The notes: a model not told the origin generated them from the letters alone. 64,000 nucleotides of DNA from Candidatus Wolfebacteria bacterium (GCA_024654025.1 JANLIR010000007.1:421-64420); one strand, 5' to 3'. Counted from the first letter of the stretch, positions 3,725 to 52,382 are shown. Made by a program: numbers and translations.

Positions 3725-3823
3725 TTTTAACATGATTTATTATCTCGCGAGGTTTGATTGACAAAATATTATAAAAGTGCTATTTCTAGCTTAGTATTTA
3801 TTTCAATAGAAAGGAGCAAGAAC

Positions 3824-4180
3824 GTGTCGACAAAAAATACCAGGTCGGGTGGAAAATACGGCGGTGGCCATACGACCATGATTCCTGCCGCGATTATCGT
3901 AGCCGATATTGTTGAAAGACAGCCAGAGGTTTCGCGGATTTCTCCCGGTATTTTGAAAGCCGGACTTAAGTCTGCCAACGGACAAAGGCGAGTTAAAATC
4001 TCAGATTGGGAAGGAGGAATTCTTCTTTCGGTTCGGGACAACACAACTCACCAGGAGGTAAGAGTTTACACGAGCAATTCTCACGTTACAAAGCTGGCGA
4101 TAGCCCGCGGAGCCAGAAACGCCGGCCTGCACATTTCTTTTGGGAATTTGCGGGAATTTAGTAGCAGACTGATAAAATAA
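3824..4180 (+). CDS. hypothetical protein (island ORF 1; GTG start with strong SD AAAGGAG)
   Basis: ORF in GC-richer island; AAAGGAG 7 nt upstream of GTG at 3824; no recognisable domain. Confidence 0.4.
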   Translation: MSTKNTRSGGKYGGGHTTMIPAAIIVADIVERQPEVSRISPGILKAGLKSANGQRRVKISDWEGGILLSVRDNTTHQEVRVYTSNSHVTKLAIARGARNAGLHISFGNLREFSSRLIK

Positions 4181-4218
4181 GCTAATTGGAAAAAATATTT
4201 CGGAGAAAGGGGACTGAA

Positions 4219-4896
4219 ATGAAGGCTTTTACTGTTGAGGAGGACGGGCGTTTGTGGAGGCTTTCGCGATTTGGGCTTCGAACAATGGCTGGAAACCACG
4301 TTTACGAAGGTATTGATGTGTGGAAAGAAACTGAGGATGCTGGCTATAGAAAGATAAAAGAAGTAGGTCCGTATCTTTTTCGTCTGACAGTTTGCGGCAC
4401 GCCGAAAGTTTTGCCTGTTCTTGACGAGGAGATAGTGCGAATTGTCCACGAACAGGAAATTATGTCTTCGAAGGAATCGATTGTGGAAGATATTGATTTT
4501 CAATACGATGAAAATGGTTGCGCAAAGACAATAATTGCTCCTTCTCGCTGTAGTGACGATATCGTGGTTTACTGGAGGTTGGGAAGGATATACAACAGTC
4601 TTATCGAGAGCGAAAATTCTTCCATAGCCGTCGTGTTGAATAATGTCAGAATTATAGCTTTGGGATATGATTGGGACTTCTACGGTTCGTCGACTGGATA
4701 CTATCCAAGGATTCTCGTTCAACTTGAACCCGGAGGAGAAGTTATTGTGCCAATAACGTATAGATGGAGATTCGCAACACGTTTCCATACGCGGATTTTC
4801 TATGACGCCGAGACGAAGCGAATCGTATTGGACAGCGAGAAAAGTGTTCAAAGATCGGCGTTCGCGGAAAATATAGGGAAGGTCATTTCTCTCTGA
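4219..4896 (+). CDS. hypothetical protein (island ORF 2)
   Basis: ATG at 4219 preceded by GGAGAAAGGGGA SD; the upstream in-frame ATG at 4186 lacks an SD; no recognisable domain. Confidence 0.45.
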   Translation: MKAFTVEEDGRLWRLSRFGLRTMAGNHVYEGIDVWKETEDAGYRKIKEVGPYLFRLTVCGTPKVLPVLDEEIVRIVHEQEIMSSKESIVEDIDFQYDENGCAKTIIAPSRCSDDIVVYWRLGRIYNSLIESENSSIAVVLNNVRIIALGYDWDFYGSSTGYYPRILVQLEPGGEVIVPITYRWRFATRFHTRIFYDAETKRIVLDSEKSVQRSAFAENIGKVISL

Positions 4897-5049
4897 ATAA
4901 TTCCATGTGTAATTTGTAGGGGGCAGCCATTTGGTTTGCCCCTCATTTTTTTGACAATGCATAAGAATTTTGGCAGGATAAGGGCAGTATTTCGGCTTAA
5001 TTTAATAAGGCAGAATTGATTACAAATTTAAGAATAAAAGGGGAAAGCC

Positions 5050-5286
5050 ATGCCGTGTGAAAAATGCGAGATTATTTTTCGCAGTCGTAAGTCGGCTCCG
5101 TTCATTCCTTTTAACGGCAGGAAAAGAGATGATTTGTACGAATGTATTGGCTGTAAACAAATCTGGTGGCAGTATGATTTGGTTTGGCATTGCTGGACTA
5201 CGTTGAATGCGCGGCAGGTGGAAATCACGCAGAGAAAAATTAAAGCGCAAGAAAGAAAACCCATAAATCGAGTAAGAACATATTAG
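5050..5286 (+). CDS. small Cys-rich zinc-ribbon-like protein (island ORF 3)
   Basis: CxxC...CxxC pattern (CEKCE ... CIGCK); AAAGGGGA SD. Confidence 0.4.
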   Translation: MPCEKCEIIFRSRKSAPFIPFNGRKRDDLYECIGCKQIWWQYDLVWHCWTTLNARQVEITQRKIKAQERKPINRVRTY

Positions 5287-5304
5287 GAGAGAGGGGGTGT
5301 TGAA

Positions 5305-5634
5305 ATGGGTGAGAGCAAAGACCAGTGGTTTTTAGAAACCGATGCGTTTACAAACGAATCAGTCGCTGATTTTTTAGCGAGCGAAGGAGTCGCGGCTGAA
5401 AGTACAGCTCAGTTCAAGGACAAGAAAGGAAGAATAAGACATGTCTGGAACGTGCCGTATCGGATAATTACCTTGCTCAAAAATTCGGAAAAGACGTTTC
5501 CGTTCAAGTACCGCGTTTTTGTCCGGTCCGGAGGACGCGCTATCAGGCCGTTTACGCTTCACAGAAAGAAAAAGACCTCGGTTCATTCCCGGCGGGCGCA
5601 AGAGTGGCTTCGGGAAATCGGAGCAAGGAAGTAA
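5305..5634 (+). CDS. hypothetical basic protein (island ORF 4)
   Basis: 109 aa; GAGGGGGTG SD; lysine/arginine-rich C-terminus. Confidence 0.4.
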   Translation: MGESKDQWFLETDAFTNESVADFLASEGVAAESTAQFKDKKGRIRHVWNVPYRIITLLKNSEKTFPFKYRVFVRSGGRAIRPFTLHRKKKTSVHSRRAQEWLREIGARK

Positions 5635-5646
5635 AAGGAGGACGCG

Positions 5647-5853
5647 ATGGGAAACGAGCTTAATAAACACCAGAAAGAAGCGTTGTCGGCTTTACGGGAA
5701 TTGGGAGGAACCGCAACTACGCGGCAGATTGCCGAGAAGGTAAAACGGAGCGTAAACGGAGTTTCTCAAACTCTCGGCGCGCTTTGGCTGGCTGTGAATT
5801 GTCTCGGCGGCAAAGGCGGAGAAAACAAGTGGAGATTGTGGAAAGAGATATAG
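5647..5853 (+). CDS. small winged-helix DNA-binding protein (island ORF 5)
   Basis: 68 aa; 'TTRQIAEKVKRSVNGVSQTLGAL' HTH-like; AAAGGAGG SD; strong terminator follows. Confidence 0.45.
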   Translation: MGNELNKHQKEALSALRELGGTATTRQIAEKVKRSVNGVSQTLGALWLAVNCLGGKGGENKWRLWKEI

Positions 5854-5883
5854 GAAGTAGGCGAATCTGTTTTATCGTAACTG

Positions 5884-5915
5884 CCGCATGGCGCAAACCA
5901 TGCGGCGTTTTTTTA
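5884..5915 (+). terminator. rho-independent terminator closing the island
   Basis: CCGCATGGcgcaaaCCATGCGG hairpin + TTTTTTT. Confidence 0.75.
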
Positions 5916-5931
5916 TAATAGCGCCGTTTTT

Positions 5932-6863: not shown

Positions 6864-8540
6864 ATGAAAATAAGAATTTTAAGCTTATCGGTTTTAGCTT
6901 TCGGGATTATTATTTCCGCGGGCATTATTTTGGATGCGAAAACGTTTGCGCAAGAAAATGCGGGAAATTCCAACGCAGAGGTAAATATTCAGTATCCAAT
7001 TGTGGAATTGGGTAATTGTAAAAATAAAGAGGAGTGTAAAAACTTTTGCGAGAAACCTGAGCATACAAATGCTTGTCTTGCTTTTGCCCAGACAAATAAT
7101 TTGATGAGCAAAGAAGAAATTGCGGCAGCTAAAAAAATGCTTTCAATCGGTAAAGGCCCGGGTGGTTGCACGAGTAAAGATACGTGCGAAGCGTATTGTG
7201 ATAACACTGATCATATAAATGAATGCGTGGCGTTTGCCGAAAAAACAGGGATAATACCACCAAAGGATCTTGAAGAGGCTAAAAAAATAAAAGCGGCGAT
7301 TGATAGCGGTATAAAGCCGCCTCCATGCAAGAGCAAAAAAGAATGCGACAGTTATTGCGGCAGCGGGGCGGATCAGATGGAGCAGTGTATTACATTTGCC
7401 AAGGCAGCTGGTTTTATGAAACCGGAAGAAGAAGCGGACGCGCAGAAAATGATAGCCGCGATGAAAAAAGGAGCTAAGCCGCCGGCTTGTAACGGCAAGG
7501 AAGATTGCGATCAGTATTGTTCTCAGGATACCCATTTTGAAGAGTGTATTAATTTTGCGGAAGTGGCTGGTTTTATTACTTCCGAAGAAGTACAGATGGC
7601 GAGAAAGACCGGAGGAAAAGGTCCGGGAAATTGCCGCGGCAAGGAAGAGTGTGATAGTTTTTGCCAAAAAGATGCGAATATGGAAACTTGCGCGAATTTT
7701 GCTGTTGAGCACGGAATGATGAGCCAGAAAGATCTTGAGATGTTTAAGAAAACCGGAGGCAAGGGTCCGGGCGGATGCAAGAGTAAAGATGAGTGCGACG
7801 CGTTTTGTAATAATTCCGAAAACCGGGAGGCGTGTTTTAGCTTTGGGAAAGAACACGGGCTTATTTCCGAAGAAGATCTTAAAAAAATGGAAGACGGGAA
7901 ACAGAAAATGGTGGAAGGATTTAATCAAGCTCCGCCGGAAGTTGTAAATTGTTTAAAACAAGCATTCGGCGATAATAACTTTGAAAAAATAAAAAGCGGA
8001 GGTTTTATGCCCACTCAAGAGATGGGCGAACATATGCGCGAGTGTTTTGGGAAAATGGGTCCGCCTCCCGGTGATGAAAAACCAGGCGAAGGACCAGGTG
8101 GATGGCCTGATGGAGGGCCGAATAGTTCCGGAACGCCCATGATGGGTCCGGGAAAAGACGATCAGAGCGGCGGCCCGAATATTGATTCATTGCCTTCGCA
8201 GGTTAAAGAATGCATGATTTTAAATTTCGGGGCTAATTTTGAAGAGCGTGTTAAATTAGGGGAAATAAAAGGCGAAGAATTTGGCCAGCAAGTCACAAAA
8301 TGTTTTGTGAATTTCCAGTCGCAACAAGGCGTGCCAATGCAGAATTTTACTATGCCCTCAGGAAGCCAAATGATGCCGCTTCAAATGAATCAGCCCTTGC
8401 CAATTCAACCGCAACAAACATTACCGCCTCCTCCAGCTCCTACTCAACAGCCGCTTCCTTCCGGGTTTGTTCCGGCAAAAATGCTTTTAGGGTTTTTGAT
8501 TGAGGCGTTCGATAATGTTTTTCAAAAAATAGGATTTTAA
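6864..8540 (+). CDS. secreted protein with six cysteine-rich ~50-aa tandem repeats and a Pro/Gln-rich tail
   Basis: N-terminal signal/TM; six repeats of C-x5-C-x3-C-x8-C ... F-A/G-x-x-x-G (CKNKEECKNFCEKPEHTNAC, CTSKDTCEAYCDNTDHINEC, CKSKKECDSYCGSGADQMEQC, CNGKEDCDQYCSQDTHFEEC, CRGKEECDSFCQKDANMETC, CKSKDECDAFCNNSENREAC); C-terminal G/P/Q-rich region. Confidence 0.6.
   Translation: MKIRILSLSVLAFGIIISAGIILDAKTFAQENAGNSNAEVNIQYPIVELGNCKNKEECKNFCEKPEHTNACLAFAQTNNLMSKEEIAAAKKMLSIGKGPGGCTSKDTCEAYCDNTDHINECVAFAEKTGIIPPKDLEEAKKIKAAIDSGIKPPPCKSKKECDSYCGSGADQMEQCITFAKAAGFMKPEEEADAQKMIAAMKKGAKPPACNGKEDCDQYCSQDTHFEECINFAEVAGFITSEEVQMARKTGGKGPGNCRGKEECDSFCQKDANMETCANFAVEHGMMSQKDLEMFKKTGGKGPGGCKSKDECDAFCNNSENREACFSFGKEHGLISEEDLKKMEDGKQKMVEGFNQAPPEVVNCLKQAFGDNNFEKIKSGGFMPTQEMGEHMRECFGKMGPPPGDEKPGEGPGGWPDGGPNSSGTPMMGPGKDDQSGGPNIDSLPSQVKECMILNFGANFEERVKLGEIKGEEFGQQVTKCFVNFQSQQGVPMQNFTMPSGSQMMPLQMNQPLPIQPQQTLPPPPAPTQQPLPSGFVPAKMLLGFLIEAFDNVFQKIGF
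7017..7830 (+). repeat. six in-frame tandem ~150-nt repeats encoding the Cys-rich module
   Basis: periodic CxxxxxCxxxC motif in translation; the antisense ORF 7143..7928 is a by-product of the repeat. Confidence 0.6.
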
Positions 8541-9195: not shown

Positions 9196-9322
9196 CATTC
9201 GACTGACTCAGGTCTTCGACTCCCTCGGGACTGAGTCCTCGGGACGAACGTCCGAGACTCAGATCTTCTGATTCAGAGAATCATCAGATTCGATGAACTC
9301 GAGGAGGTTGTCCTGAGTTAAT
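9196..9322. repeat. GC-rich highly palindromic element (REP/RPE-like or structured leader) upstream of 9365 gene
   Basis: local GC spike in AT-rich DNA; nested inverted repeats e.g. CTGAGTCCTCGG...CCGAGACTCAG (12-bp stem), TCTGATTC...GAATCATCAGA, GTCCT...AGGAC; shares 'TTCGACTGA' and 'AGGAGG..GTCCTGAG' with the uvrC insert. Confidence 0.4.
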
Positions 9323-9364
9323 TGAAGGACAAAAATGGTCGTAAAATAATTAAAAAAAATAAAC

Positions 9365-18966: not shown

Positions 18967-19407
18967 TCATCTTGGGCAAGTTTTGTTCATCATGTTCAGA
19001 TATTTTTTGGGAAAACTTTGTAAATCTATTTTTCTTGGAATATCTGTGAGTGAAGTCAAACCAAAAACGGATTTTGTCAGATGGGGCACGGAAGAATTTA
19101 AAAAATCATAGTCGTATTTCTTTATCGTTAAAAGCAGGGGATAGGCGTTTAAAATGTTGTTGTCGTCTTCTCCCGTAAAGATTCCGATCCATAAATCGTC
19201 TATGGCGACATAGGCCGCTATCGTGAAACCTACAACTTCAATTCTTAGTCCCTCCAATCTTTTTGTCAGAAATTCCGCCAATCCGCATAGTAAAGTGAAT
19301 TCCCGCGGATTTTGACAGGACGTTTGAATATCGGCGTTGTTTTTTACTTGTTTGAGTTTTTCTTGAAGCGCCGTTGTTAAATGCACAACATTCAATCTAC
19401 TTGGCAT
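18967..19407 (-). CDS. hypothetical protein
   Basis: 146 aa, no recognised motif. Confidence 0.4.
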   Translation of the reverse strand: MPSRLNVVHLTTALQEKLKQVKNNADIQTSCQNPREFTLLCGLAEFLTKRLEGLRIEVVGFTIAAYVAIDDLWIGIFTGEDDNNILNAYPLLLTIKKYDYDFLNSSVPHLTKSVFGLTSLTDIPRKIDLQSFPKKYLNMMNKTCPR

Positions 19408-29402: not shown

Positions 29403-29503
29403 TATTTATTATTTTATCAATATAAAAAACAAAAGACAATGGAACAAAGTTTAAGAAACGTTACGTTAAGTGGCGTTTCGTAATCCTGAGTTTATCGAAG
29501 GAT

Positions 29504-29556: not shown

Positions 29557-29988
29557 TTATAAGAATGCTTGAATTTTCTGTTTGGACACTCCCATTTTTA
29601 GAAGTTCTTTTTTGGTATCGCAATACTGTTTTTCGATAAATTGTGAGCGGTTCATGCCCGAAGGAGGGCTTTCGAAATATTCCACCGCATTTTTAGAACT
29701 CAAACGCGGTGAAATTTTTTCTAAAATATACTCTCTTATTTCCGCTACTGTGGAGTATTGTCTGCTAATAGCTAGCAGTTCCTGGAGTTTTTCAACTTCT
29801 TCTTTTTTCCCGAATCGTTTAATCCATAAGCGCCGAGGAATGCGGTAAAAACGAAGGCCAACAAACAAAAGCAGTAAAGTTGGAAGGACTATAAATATTA
29901 ACAACGCTTTGGGAAGTTCGATAATAGTTGGGACGACGAGTTGATAAAAGAAATCGGAAAATGTTTCCGTCCAAGGCGTAGATGTCAT
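29557..29988 (-). CDS. hypothetical membrane protein
   Basis: one or two TM segments, no known domain. Confidence 0.4.
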   Translation of the reverse strand: MTSTPWTETFSDFFYQLVVPTIIELPKALLIFIVLPTLLLLFVGLRFYRIPRRLWIKRFGKKEEVEKLQELLAISRQYSTVAEIREYILEKISPRLSSKNAVEYFESPPSGMNRSQFIEKQYCDTKKELLKMGVSKQKIQAFL

Positions 29989-34689: not shown

Positions 34690-34720
34690 AAGGACCTTTT
34701 TAGGGGTCCTTTGGCGGAGG
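34690..34720. terminator. hairpin terminator shared by convergent uvrA and the 34700-35098 gene
   Basis: AAGGACCtttttaGGGGTCCTT with T-run on the minus side. Confidence 0.45.
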
Positions 34721-35098
34721 AAAGGCTGACAGAAATTCCTCTGCAGTTTTGATGATGTAGTTTACTTCGGGAAACATTAAGCTGTGAGAAAAAGGCATTT
34801 TCGGGTTTGCGCGATATGGATTTACAGCTTCAAGCAGAGGCATTTCGGTTTGCTGTATAATTTTTCTTATCACGGTCTCGGAAATAGGAGTTATTGGGCA
34901 AAAAGCGTGTCTGTTTATATTCTGCAGTTCCTTTTTTGTATATCTTCCTTCGTCCAATCTTTTGGCGTTCTTTTTACCACCAATAAAGATTTTGTCTTCT
35001 TTCGCCAGCTCCTTTAATTTCTCGATAAGGTAAAAGGTGTATGCCCACGAAAAGCCGGTTATGACCGAAGGAATCGGGTATTTCGCTACGTTCTTCAT
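34700..35098 (-). CDS. hypothetical protein
   Basis: 132 aa; no confident family assignment. Confidence 0.4.
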   Translation of the reverse strand: MKNVAKYPIPSVITGFSWAYTFYLIEKLKELAKEDKIFIGGKKNAKRLDEGRYTKKELQNINRHAFCPITPISETVIRKIIQQTEMPLLEAVNPYRANPKMPFSHSLMFPEVNYIIKTAEEFLSAFPPPKDP

Positions 35099-49577: not shown

Positions 49578-49621
49578 TTTTATAATTTGCGGAAGCGGGA
49601 GGCCACAGCATCATAACAAGT

Positions 49622-49637
49622 AATGGTGCTGGGTAAA
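49622..49637 (-). repeat. solo copy of the GIY-YIG cassette terminal repeat next to tRNA-Ser
   Basis: minus strand reads ATTTTACCCAGCACCATT; 13/13 match to TTTACCCAGCACC at 41250-41262. Confidence 0.35.
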
Positions 49638-49653
49638 ATTCTCACTATTTTTG

Positions 49654-49742
49654 CGGTGGGGGTGAGATTTGAACTCACGATGCCCTTGCGAGCATACCAC
49701 ATTTCGAGTGTGGCGCCTTAAACCGGACTCAGCCACCCCACC
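49654..49742 (-). tRNA. tRNA-Ser (anticodon CGA)
   Basis: revcomp: GGTGGGGTGGCTGAGTCCGG...CCACACTCGAAATGTGG (anticodon CGA) long variable arm, T-loop GAGTTCAAATCTCAC, acceptor CCCCACC. Confidence 0.75.
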
Positions 49743-49756
49743 ACTATCTTTGTATG

Positions 49757-49828
49757 TGCCCTCGCGAGGAATCGGACCTCGATCCGCACGTTAGGAGTGT
49801 GCTATTCTATCCGTTGAACTACGAGGGC
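49757..49828 (-). tRNA. tRNA-Arg (anticodon CCU)
   Basis: revcomp: GCCCTCGTAGTTCAACGGATAGAA...CACACTCCTAACGTG (anticodon CCT), T-arm CGAGGTCCGATTCCTCG, acceptor CGAGGGC-A. Confidence 0.65.
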
Positions 49829-49839
49829 AATGAAAATAG

Positions 49840-49889
49840 ATTATATTTTTTATCAAAAACTTGCAAGGCATTAAAAGTTTCGTTATTAT
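49840..49889. promoter_or_regulatory. back-to-back divergent tRNA promoters sharing a palindromic -35 (CTTGCAAG)
   Basis: plus: TTGCAA-17-TATTAT toward tRNA-Ala(GGC); minus: TTGCAA-15-TATAAT toward tRNA-Arg/tRNA-Ser. Confidence 0.5.
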
Positions 49890-49944
49890 AAAATCGCTCC
49901 AGCGTTAATAGTCACAAGTTAAAAGTTATTAGTTATTTAATAAT

Positions 49945-50018
49945 GGGCCGTTAGCTCATTTGGCTAGAGCGCTACTATGGCATAGTAGAGGCGACCGGTT
50001 CGAATCCGGTACGGTCCA
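49945..50018 (+). tRNA. tRNA-Ala (anticodon GGC)
   Basis: acceptor GGGCCGT/ACGGTCC with G3·U70, anticodon stem CTACT/AGTAG loop aTGGCat, T-loop GGTTCGAATCC. Confidence 0.75.
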
Positions 50019-50033
50019 CGAGTAAAGCTTAAT

Positions 50034-50065
50034 AAAATCTCCCGATACCGGGAGATTTTATTTTA
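50034..50065. terminator. bidirectional terminator (tRNA-Ala + / response regulator -)
   Basis: TCTCCCGataCCGGGAGA with T-runs on both strands. Confidence 0.65.
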
Positions 50066-50444
50066 CAAACGTTTTGACTTTTGATACGAGATCATCGATT
50101 GAGGTTTTTGCCTTCACGAAATATTCTATTGCTCCAAGTTGTTTGCTTTTTTGAATATCCTCGGGCTGGCTTAAGTTGGAAATAATAATAACCGGAATGT
50201 CTATTTTATCGCTTAATTCCGGATCGGATTTTATGTCTTCCATAATTTCAAATCCGGACTTTTTAGGCAGAATAATATCCAAAAGGATAAGATTCGGCGT
50301 TGAAGATTTTAAAAATTTAATCGCTTCTTCGCCGTCTTTTGCCACCAGCACTTCAAAATTCTCCTTTTGGAGACGATTTTTTAAAAGCGAAGATAAAAAC
50401 GGTTCGTCTTCAATGAGTAATATTTTTTTCGGTTTTCCTGCCAT
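50058..50444 (-). CDS. single-domain response regulator (CheY-like receiver)
   Basis: 'ILLIEDEPF', 'ILLDIILPKKSG', 'PVIIISN', conserved K in 'YFVKA'. Confidence 0.85.
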   Translation of the reverse strand: MAGKPKKILLIEDEPFLSSLLKNRLQKENFEVLVAKDGEEAIKFLKSSTPNLILLDIILPKKSGFEIMEDIKSDPELSDKIDIPVIIISNLSQPEDIQKSKQLGAIEYFVKAKTSIDDLVSKVKTFVK

Positions 50445-50461
50445 ATGTTAATTAATTTATC

Positions 50462-50502
50462 AGATAAATCAAAATCCCGCCAGTCCAGAGACTGGCGGGA
50501 TT
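50462..50502 (-). terminator. strong hairpin terminator immediately downstream of the 16S rRNA gene
   Basis: 13-bp stem AATCCCGCCAGTC/GACTGGCGGGATT followed (minus strand) by TTTTGATTTAT. Confidence 0.6.
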
Positions 50503-50619
50503 GTTGGAAATTTTTTGGTTGCCCCAATACTCTCGCTTTAGGCGAGAGAGTCGAGACATAAGGCTCCTCGACTAACACCTGTGTCCGCAAAGCGGACATC
50601 GATCAATTTTCGAATTTAA

Positions 50620-52150
<1,531 letters not shown>

Positions 52151-52382
52151 ATGCTAAAGCTCAAGCTTATATAGCGAAGAAAATCTAACAACCAGTACTG
52201 ATTATTAGAAATCCTTCGCCAGCTTGAAGTTCAGCATTTTTGTCCTTCGACAAACTCAGGACAATCCTGAGTAGCATCGAAGGATTGGGACAACCAAAAA
52301 AGTTCCAACTTTTTTTGGTTTTAATAAGCATCGATTGTTAAAGTCCTTTCCATGTTCAGCTCATTTTTTTCAGAGCCTACTT

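Follow-up and report, generated by a model that had tools for sequence, protein, structure and literature searches.

Layout of the locus

The 64-kb window considered here (the whole stretch of DNA that was analysed) belongs to a contig of a Candidatus Wolfebacteria metagenome-assembled genome, within the Parcubacteria of the candidate phyla radiation (CPR). Five open reading frames (ORFs) on the plus strand, O1 to O5, lie inside positions 3758-5930 and are each led by a Shine-Dalgarno (SD) motif, although the 16S rRNA encoded in the same window lacks the sequence with which such motifs pair. An initial annotation had described the block as five co-directional ORFs closed by a strong terminator, and had proposed a horizontally acquired cassette such as a phage or plasmid remnant, a toxin-antitoxin pair or a small defence module. 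The five ORFs and the terminator were recovered at the positions listed below. A second terminator (4920-4942 followed by T7) together with a second TTGACA promoter divides the block into two transcription units. Unit 1 consists of a TTGACA promoter, O1, O2 and a terminator, and unit 2 of a TTGACA promoter, a conserved leader, O3, O4, O5 and a terminator. Energies given with the SDs are predicted free energies (dG, in kcal/mol) of pairing to a canonical 16S rRNA tail.

3758..3763, plus strand: TTGACA −35-like box of unit 1, from direct sequence reading; absent as a full promoter from the consensus scan
3810..3816, plus strand: SD of O1, AAAGGAG, 7 nt ahead of the GTG start; dG −7.9
3824..4180, plus strand: O1, DUF2103 protein of 118 aa with a GTG start (Pfam PF09876)
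4206..4213, plus strand: SD of O2, AAAGGGGA, 5 nt ahead of the ATG; dG −7.8
4219..4896, plus strand: O2, 225-aa near-ORFan (ORF call; single distant relative P0083)
4920..4952, plus strand: intrinsic terminator of unit 1, GGGGCAGCC...GCCCC hairpin and T7; fold energy −16.2 kcal/mol
4951..5049, plus strand: TTGACA box of unit 2 (4951-4956) and leader of ~95 nt with TTGAC(A/T) repeats, conserved in relatives
5040..5044, plus strand: SD of O3, GGGGA within AAAAGGGGAAAG, 5 nt ahead of the ATG
5050..5286, plus strand: O3, 78-aa zinc-ribbon protein with a basic C-terminus (Cys pairs C3, C6, C32, C35)
5291..5299, plus strand: SD of O4, GAGGGGGTG, 5 nt ahead of the ATG; dG −14.9
5305..5634, plus strand: O4, 109-aa protein with a basic C-terminal helix (ORF call, AlphaFold2 [AF2] model)
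5634..5641, plus strand: SD of O5, AAAGGAGG, overlapping the O4 stop codon, 5 nt ahead of the ATG; dG −11.6
5647..5853, plus strand: O5, 68-aa putative winged-helix DNA-binding protein (sub-threshold helix-turn-helix [HTH] matches)
5882..5914, plus strand: intrinsic terminator of unit 2, hairpin 5882-5907 and T run, −18.5 kcal/mol

The unit 1 terminator was missed by the consensus scan, apparently because of its long loop. The promoter and leader of unit 1 (3758-3823, 66 nt) show a single difference from those of a related locus, L001, though the synonymous divergence (dS) of O1 is 0.75. Likewise, the promoter and leader of unit 2 (window 4951-5049; L001 5662-5756; L007 7650-7744) are conserved well beyond synonymous sites. 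The leader alignment (window 4940-5055) has a mean column identity of 85% across the window, L001 and L007, compared with a dS of 0.6-1.2 in the genes. The repeated TTGAC motifs of this leader could be operator sites. No convincing covarying RNA structure was found in the unit 2 leader, and an Rfam scan of the block returned zero families. Judged by eye, an TGGCAGGATAAGGGCA stretch in the same leader has GG/GC spacing like that of a sigma-54 −24/−12 promoter. An equivalent unit 2 terminator and downstream junction are present in L007.

Shine-Dalgarno signals and the 16S rRNA tail

Pairing between the SD and the anti-SD of the 16S rRNA is the textbook mechanism of bacterial start-site selection. 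Some lineages ignore it, among them the Bacteroidota, and the anti-SD itself has been lost in some Parcubacteria and some endosymbionts. In the block, each of O1 to O5 has an SD ending 5-7 nt before its start codon, as the initial annotation had observed, and a GGAGG-type motif 4-10 nt upstream of the start, the mark of a canonical SD, was found in 5/5 ORFs. Predicted pairing energies to the canonical CACCUCCUUA tail ranged from −7.8 to −14.9 kcal/mol. Genes in the window were called SD-led when this energy was −7.5 or lower. By that measure the reported scarcity of SDs elsewhere held as well, with 5/5 genes in the block and 5/52 other genes being SD-led (Fisher p = 6e-5); 4.5% of random ATGs in the window reach the same threshold. 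Three of the five SD-led genes outside the block are convincing (18967-19407, 29557-29988 and 34700-35098, all on the minus strand), and each is an isolated hypothetical gene without a Pfam match. Two of them, 18967-19407 and 34700-35098, are oriented opposite to their neighbours.

The SD-led genes of this genome, as far as the window covers it, are all uncharacterised accessory genes. Forty-five genes without an SD account for matches to 52 Pfam families, among them PheS/T, UvrA/B/C, DHO_dh, T2SSE/F and ABC transporters. In one Parcubacterial genome, L031, a gene resembling that of ribosomal protein bL28 (7506-7778, minus strand; identified by N-terminal reading only) is led by caggagg, and SD-led status is therefore not limited to hypothetical genes.

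The host 16S rRNA gene lies outside the block:

50613..52150, minus strand: 16S rRNA gene (Rfam SSU_rRNA_bacteria, 1432 bits, model positions 1-1533)

Direct reading of its 3′ end, located at about 50613-50626, gave GGAAUAAUUAAAUU after helix 45 in place of GGAUCACCUCCUUA. The gene ends in ...GUGCGUGGAAUAAUUAAAUU, with AAUUAAA standing where a 16S rRNA would carry CCUCC, so that the element required for canonical SD-led initiation is missing. No GGATCACCTCCTT-like sequence or CCUCC tail was found near the 16S 3′ end, and no CCUCC-tailed 16S was found within the window. One internal CCUCC occurs in the 16S, at position 1044, inside the rRNA body. The description of the block as carrying translation signals foreign to the host was thus accurate, and the reader of these SDs, if any, is not the 3′ tail of this 16S rRNA. 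Downstream of the 16S gene (49600-50612, minus strand) there are two to three hairpins, a response-regulator gene (50058-50444, minus strand) and then tRNA genes. No 23S gene follows the 16S, and the rRNA genes are therefore unlinked here.

The altered tail was compared across 120 metagenomic 16S genes sharing an identical 32-nt helix 45. An AWTTAMA-type tail was found in 87 of the 120, mostly of the AUCAAUUAAACU type and most often ATCAATTAAACT, whereas CCTCC was found in 5; the sequences diverge directly after the tail. The anti-SD has therefore been replaced by another conserved sequence across a broad clade, and the conservation of the replacement tail suggests that it has some function. 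The closest 16S sequences, L119 (94% identity) and L153 (89%), both lack CCUCC and come from the same metagenomes as two contigs that bear the cassette, L002 and L008. Nothing indicated that the new tail serves as an alternative, AT-rich anti-SD: complementary 5-mers upstream of the window genes numbered 1.12 per gene vs 0.90 ± 0.15 in shuffles, which was not a significant enrichment.

The absence of CCUCC from the host 16S and the SD-less state of most window genes resemble what has been described for Parcubacteria, about 52% of which have lost the anti-SD motif (Tsurumaki et al. 2022, RNA 28:1041, PMC9297842). The passages of that article that deal with the SD report the missing motif; they contain no word on a conserved subset of genes that retain SDs, and a conserved AUCAAUUAAACU-type replacement tail, such as that of the 87/120 relatives here, is not described in them.

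Conservation and turnover of the locus

Parts of the block are found at the same locus in three related Wolfebacteria. In L007, genes encoding a bPH protein, a small transmembrane protein and a VTT protein precede O3-O4-O5, which are followed by the window's neighbours of 91, 558 and 174 aa. The order in L001 is VTT, small transmembrane protein, O1, 700 bp of unrelated DNA, O3, a 71-aa ORF, O4, a 56-aa ORF and O5, and that in L010 is bPH, small transmembrane protein, O1, O4 and the 56-aa ORF. O2 is absent from all three and strain-specific; the possibility that the 700 bp replacing it in L001 represents a decayed O2 was rejected. Between the window and L007, dS was 1.16 for O3, 0.59 for O4 and 1.21 for O5, comparable to the 0.60-1.23 of five flanking genes. 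The ratios of nonsynonymous to synonymous divergence (dN/dS) of O1 and O3 to O5 were 0.10-0.47 (0.10-0.13 for O1, 0.16-0.47 for O3 and 0.13-0.28 for O4; O2 has no orthologue), and these are therefore real genes under purifying selection.

A recent island would be absent from relatives or differently placed in them, and the block is neither. The position of O3-O5 at the same locus in relatives is the orthologous synteny that the initial annotation had itself named as speaking against its proposal. With dS values comparable to those of the flanks, the proposed cassette of foreign origin, whether a remnant of a phage or plasmid, a toxin-antitoxin pair or a defence module, was not borne out. The part of the horizontal proposal that stands is local flux: no relative shares the strain-specific O2, and small ORFs come and go, being inserted at a shared AAAGGAGGRCGYGATG junction. 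Furthermore, O4 of the window has only 47% identity to its counterpart in L001 (6260-6586), compared with 93% in the flanks, which argues for allele replacement by recombination within a syntenic locus; the corresponding values for L007 are 76% and 85%.

Direct searches for mobile-element, toxin or defence signatures were negative. PHROGs returned nothing at E <= 1e-4 (best 8.7e-4, O5 to a family of unknown function), PADLOC-DB gave zero matches at E <= 1 for all five proteins, and IMG/VR scans for O1, O3, O4 and O5 were negative, as was a blastn search of the block's DNA against GenBank phages and PLSDB plasmids. At the block, neither an integrase nor a transposase ORF was found, no tRNA target flanks it (the nearest tRNA lies at 36.9 kb), and the direct and inverted repeats around it are short and at chance level. 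None of the five proteins matched a toxin or antitoxin Pfam family. Likewise, no conserved two-gene toxin-antitoxin pairing was seen, as the gene downstream of O1 differs from genome to genome or is absent. No CRISPR-cas genes were found nearby in any of the loci for which gene tables were read, the 52 species loci described below being unannotated.

The SDs have been conserved together with the genes. Orthologous O genes are SD-led in every relative, while the flanking genes are not. The SD of O1 is kept in L001 and L010, and that of O3 reads AAAGGAGGG in L001 and AAAGGGAGG in L007. In the O4 leader alignment the G-rich core is retained in four genomes while adjacent bases have changed, and the AAAGGAGGRCGYGATG junction precedes either O5 or the 56-aa gene in L001, L007 and L010. 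As calculated from the dS values, a neutral 5-nt core would survive a divergence of 0.6-1.2 with a probability of ~1-7% per gene. The persistence of the SDs across orthologues at this divergence therefore implies selection.

For O1, this conservation extends well beyond the locus. O1 matched Pfam PF09876 (DUF2103) with 40.5 bits (cut-off 22.4, E 2.7e-10, profile positions 4-86 of 98), and its homologues, in 77 clusters, carry precomputed PF09876 annotation. DUF2103 genes were found in 52 Patescibacteria species representatives, whose labels include Wolfe-, Kaiser-, Ryan-, Zambryski-, Moran-, Magasanik-, Staskawicz- and Buchananbacteria. The DUF2103 gene is SD-led in 30 of the 52 species (58%), compared with 50/662 neighbouring genes (7.6%; p = 6e-18). 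The SD of O1 is therefore a trait of the family and not the mark of a recent import. In these other species, 12.3% of the genes within 1.5 kb downstream of DUF2103 were SD-led vs 6.9% of those further away, and this clustering was not significant (p = 0.07).

PF09876 is described as a predicted metal-binding protein, and O1, being above the gathering threshold, belongs with it, as do the homologues annotated DUF2103. However, the Parcubacterial proteins have one domain and a length of about 110 aa, O1 has no cysteine, and metal binding is itself a prediction. The invariant family residues are G9, H16, T18, D28, G47, G53, K58 and R71, of which His16 and Asp28 are the sole conserved candidate metal ligands in Parcubacterial DUF2103. 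The AF2 model of O1 (predicted local distance difference test score, pLDDT, 87) has an alpha/beta fold, and no significant match to it was found among PDB folds. In L003 and L006, O1 is solitary with convergent neighbours. Elsewhere, Menshen NsnC is reported to carry a DUF2103-like domain as its C-terminal effector, and a link between DUF2103 and type III CRISPR loci has been described (PMC12065111). These versions are distant from the single-domain Parcubacterial proteins or are fused.

The initial annotation had listed a zinc-ribbon, a winged-helix and a basic protein along with two unknowns. The zinc ribbon (CxxC...CxxC) stood, the winged helix was recovered only below threshold, and the count of two unknowns fell with the assignment of O1 to DUF2103. 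Indeed, Pfam, NCBIfam, PHROGs and PADLOC searches with the five proteins gave only the DUF2103 match of O1 and the sub-threshold HTH of O5. The sole match to O2 in a search of 5.8 billion proteins was O2 itself, and full HMMER over 1.84 billion representatives added one distant relative, P0083 (36% identity, E 1.4e-13), a solitary SD-led gene on L013. O2 had no match in Pfam, PHROGs, PADLOC, NCBIfam or PDB. An antisense ORF (4081-4962, minus strand, 293 aa) is longer than O2 and was judged spurious. It has no Pfam match (a homologue search was not made), the GC skew fits plus-strand coding, and the plus-strand O2 has a homologue sharing its MKAFT N-terminus.

In O3, which has no Pfam match, the CxxC...CxxC pairs are invariant in three orthologues and are followed by a basic tail. 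Homologues of O4 form only four clusters, and the family was absent from 185,579 GTDB species genomes and from IMG/VR. Its AF2 model (pLDDT 76) is ferredoxin-like, beta-alpha-beta-beta-alpha-beta-beta with a basic C-terminal helix, and resembles PII-like or RRM-like folds weakly (E >= 0.024, template-modelling score <= 0.43); a BFVD fold search gave no significant match. For O5, HTH_24 (E 0.0098, 15.9 bits vs a cut-off of 21.9) and HVO_A0114 (E 0.0071, 16.6 bits vs 27.6) were matched below threshold. PDB sequence searches with O2, O4 and O5 returned nothing meaningful. The 56-aa acidic protein, which ends in PHFGTGxLPDDDW and is absent from the window, is a separate gene near O4/O5 in L001 (6599-6769) and L012 (571-738). 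In L007 (8353-8616) the PHFGTGxLPDDDW protein is fused to the O5 C-terminus, a Rosetta-stone link between the two.

The base composition of the block deviates modestly from that of its surroundings. The initial annotation had put its GC content at 45-54% against 33-40% elsewhere; an excess is present, but windowed GC gave 0.447 for the region vs 0.407 for the window, which is the 92nd percentile of equal-sized windows. Gene by gene, GC was 0.41-0.50 in the block vs 0.398 ± 0.036 in other genes, and GC at third codon positions (GC3) was 0.44-0.54 vs 0.385 ± 0.048. At 0.536, the GC3 of O4 and O5 lies above the highest host value (0.486), but the same offset is seen in the relatives' orthologues.

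Interpretation of the retained signals

Overall, we consider it moderately probable that the block is a vertically inherited, two-unit accessory locus of one Wolfebacteria clade and that its SDs are selected translation-control elements. The SDs are taken as such because they survive near synonymous saturation and because an SD is a family trait of DUF2103. Selected SDs would set a small gene group apart from the SD-less bulk of the genome, while gene content would turn over via insertion, deletion and allele replacement at conserved SD/start junctions. The five-ORF locus probably encodes small nucleic-acid-binding proteins. O3-O5 may be small nucleic-acid-binding or regulatory proteins, and O5 is likely a DNA-binding regulator of its own operon.

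Several points weigh against this interpretation. The argument from decay is weakened by the possibility that intergenic sites evolve more slowly than synonymous ones, and the SD rates of neighbouring genes in other species rest on a first-ATG heuristic. The ORFan O2, the incongruent O4 allele of L001 and the modest excess in GC and GC3 show that horizontal transfer or recombination does contribute to some extent. Neither the O1 nor the O4 model has a significant match among solved folds, and the HTH of O5 is below threshold. As 64 kb of the genome are covered, a second 16S with an anti-SD could lie outside the window, and the 16S genes of the relatives are tied to the cassette contigs by sample and similarity, not by assembly.

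A parallel is found outside the CPR. Jha et al. 2021 and McNutt et al. 2023 reportedly describe SD-poor translation in Bacteroidota with few SD-led genes retained, e.g., rpsU. Both there and here, a mostly SD-independent genome with A/U-rich leaders contains a small, specific set of genes with strong SDs, and this likeness suggests a regulatory rather than a general role for the set. However, the anti-SD of Bacteroidota is present but occluded, and pairing with SD-led genes is possible, whereas here it is gone from the 16S gene, and the Bacteroidota mechanism therefore cannot apply as it stands. Conceivably, though we think it rather doubtful, anti-SD-less Parcubacteria keep a GGAGG-dependent form of initiation or control that works without the 16S tail, with a protein or another RNA as reader, and that serves DUF2103 and O3-O4-O5. 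That a small nucleic-acid-binding O protein is itself part of such a reader is pure speculation.

Canonical, well-spaced SDs thus persist under apparent selection on a subset of genes though the sequenced 16S cannot pair with them. This raises the question of whether there is a second way to read GGAGG, a hidden subpopulation of ribosomes, or an unexpectedly slow decay of dead signals. In the last case, which takes up the horizontal origin proposed in the initial annotation, the genes would stem from donors that use SDs (other CPR bacteria, phages or plasmids), and their GGAGG motifs would be undecayed, non-functional leftovers. Such an origin would agree with the raised GC and GC3, the near-ORFan status of O2, the insertion and deletion of small ORFs between genomes, the incongruence of the L001 O4 allele with its flanks, and the hypothetical, accessory nature of all convincing SD-led window genes. 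Furthermore, some SD-led neighbours in other Parcubacteria look mobile-element-like (by N-terminal reading only, with no domain search), such as a 1031-aa restriction-modification-like ORF and an HTH gene in L030 (N-terminal reading only). The block also resembles genomic islands, prophage remnants and moron-like cassettes in its compact, co-directional small ORFs, each with its own ribosome-binding site, in its slightly raised GC, in gene content that varies between strains and in shared junctions.

However, it has no integrase, tRNA or repeat boundary, and mobility genes, convincing flanking repeats and phage or plasmid relatives were not found. Its chromosomal position is also the same in relatives, where its divergence matches that of the flanks. 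Every orthologue retains the SD core across a dS of 0.6-1.2 although adjacent bases have changed, and DUF2103 is SD-led in 58% of 52 species vs 7.6% of its neighbours. In addition, the loss of the anti-SD looks old, given how broad a clade shares the conserved replacement tail. We therefore regard leftover signals as an unlikely explanation.

Specialised ribosomes are less probable still. They would require a CCUCC-bearing 16S copy outside the window, from which minority ribosomes translate or regulate the SD-led mRNAs. The canonical SD sequence and the 5-7-nt spacing are the geometry expected for anti-SD pairing, the 16S of the window is unlinked from the 23S, and 5 of the 120 metagenomic 16S genes with the same helix 45 end in ATCACCTCCTTT. 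However, these five canonical tails may belong to other organisms, and a CCUCC-tailed 16S was not found in the window. CPR genomes generally have a single rRNA operon, which also counts against this explanation.

A toxin-antitoxin, toxin-immunity or defence module, e.g., a DUF2103 effector with O2 as immunity protein or O3-O5 as a defence operon, is very improbable: the DUF2103-like effector domain of Menshen NsnC, the type III CRISPR link (PMC12065111), the variable O2 directly downstream of O1 and the small HTH protein would suit it, but PADLOC matched none of the five proteins at E <= 1, the partner of O1 is not conserved (O2 here, O4 in L010, 700 bp of unrelated DNA in L001) and is lacking where O1 stands alone between convergent neighbours (L003, L006), no CRISPR-cas genes lie nearby in the loci with gene tables read (the 52 species loci being unannotated), and O1 is widespread and slowly evolving (dN/dS 0.10-0.13), unlike typical toxins.

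DUF2103 gains a distinguishing property, an SD that leads the gene across Parcubacteria, and functional studies of the family could be guided by it. For annotation, an SD-rich block of slightly higher GC should not be taken, on its own, as evidence that a CPR genome has recently received it by horizontal transfer.

A dispersed 19-nt repeat, TCCTTCGAYAAACTCAGGA, was also noted, with three copies in the window vs 0 expected (9311-9329 and 29484-29502 on the minus strand, 52243-52261 on the plus strand) and further copies in L001 (5191-5207) and L099 (1225-1241). One copy is separated by ~90 nt from the 16S 5′ end, and another falls within the stretch of L001 that stands in place of O2. The repeat forms the 5′ half of a nested hairpin, CCTTCGA-CAAA-CTCAGGA-CAA-TCCTGAG-N5-TCGAAGG, at 52243 and, less perfectly, at 9311.

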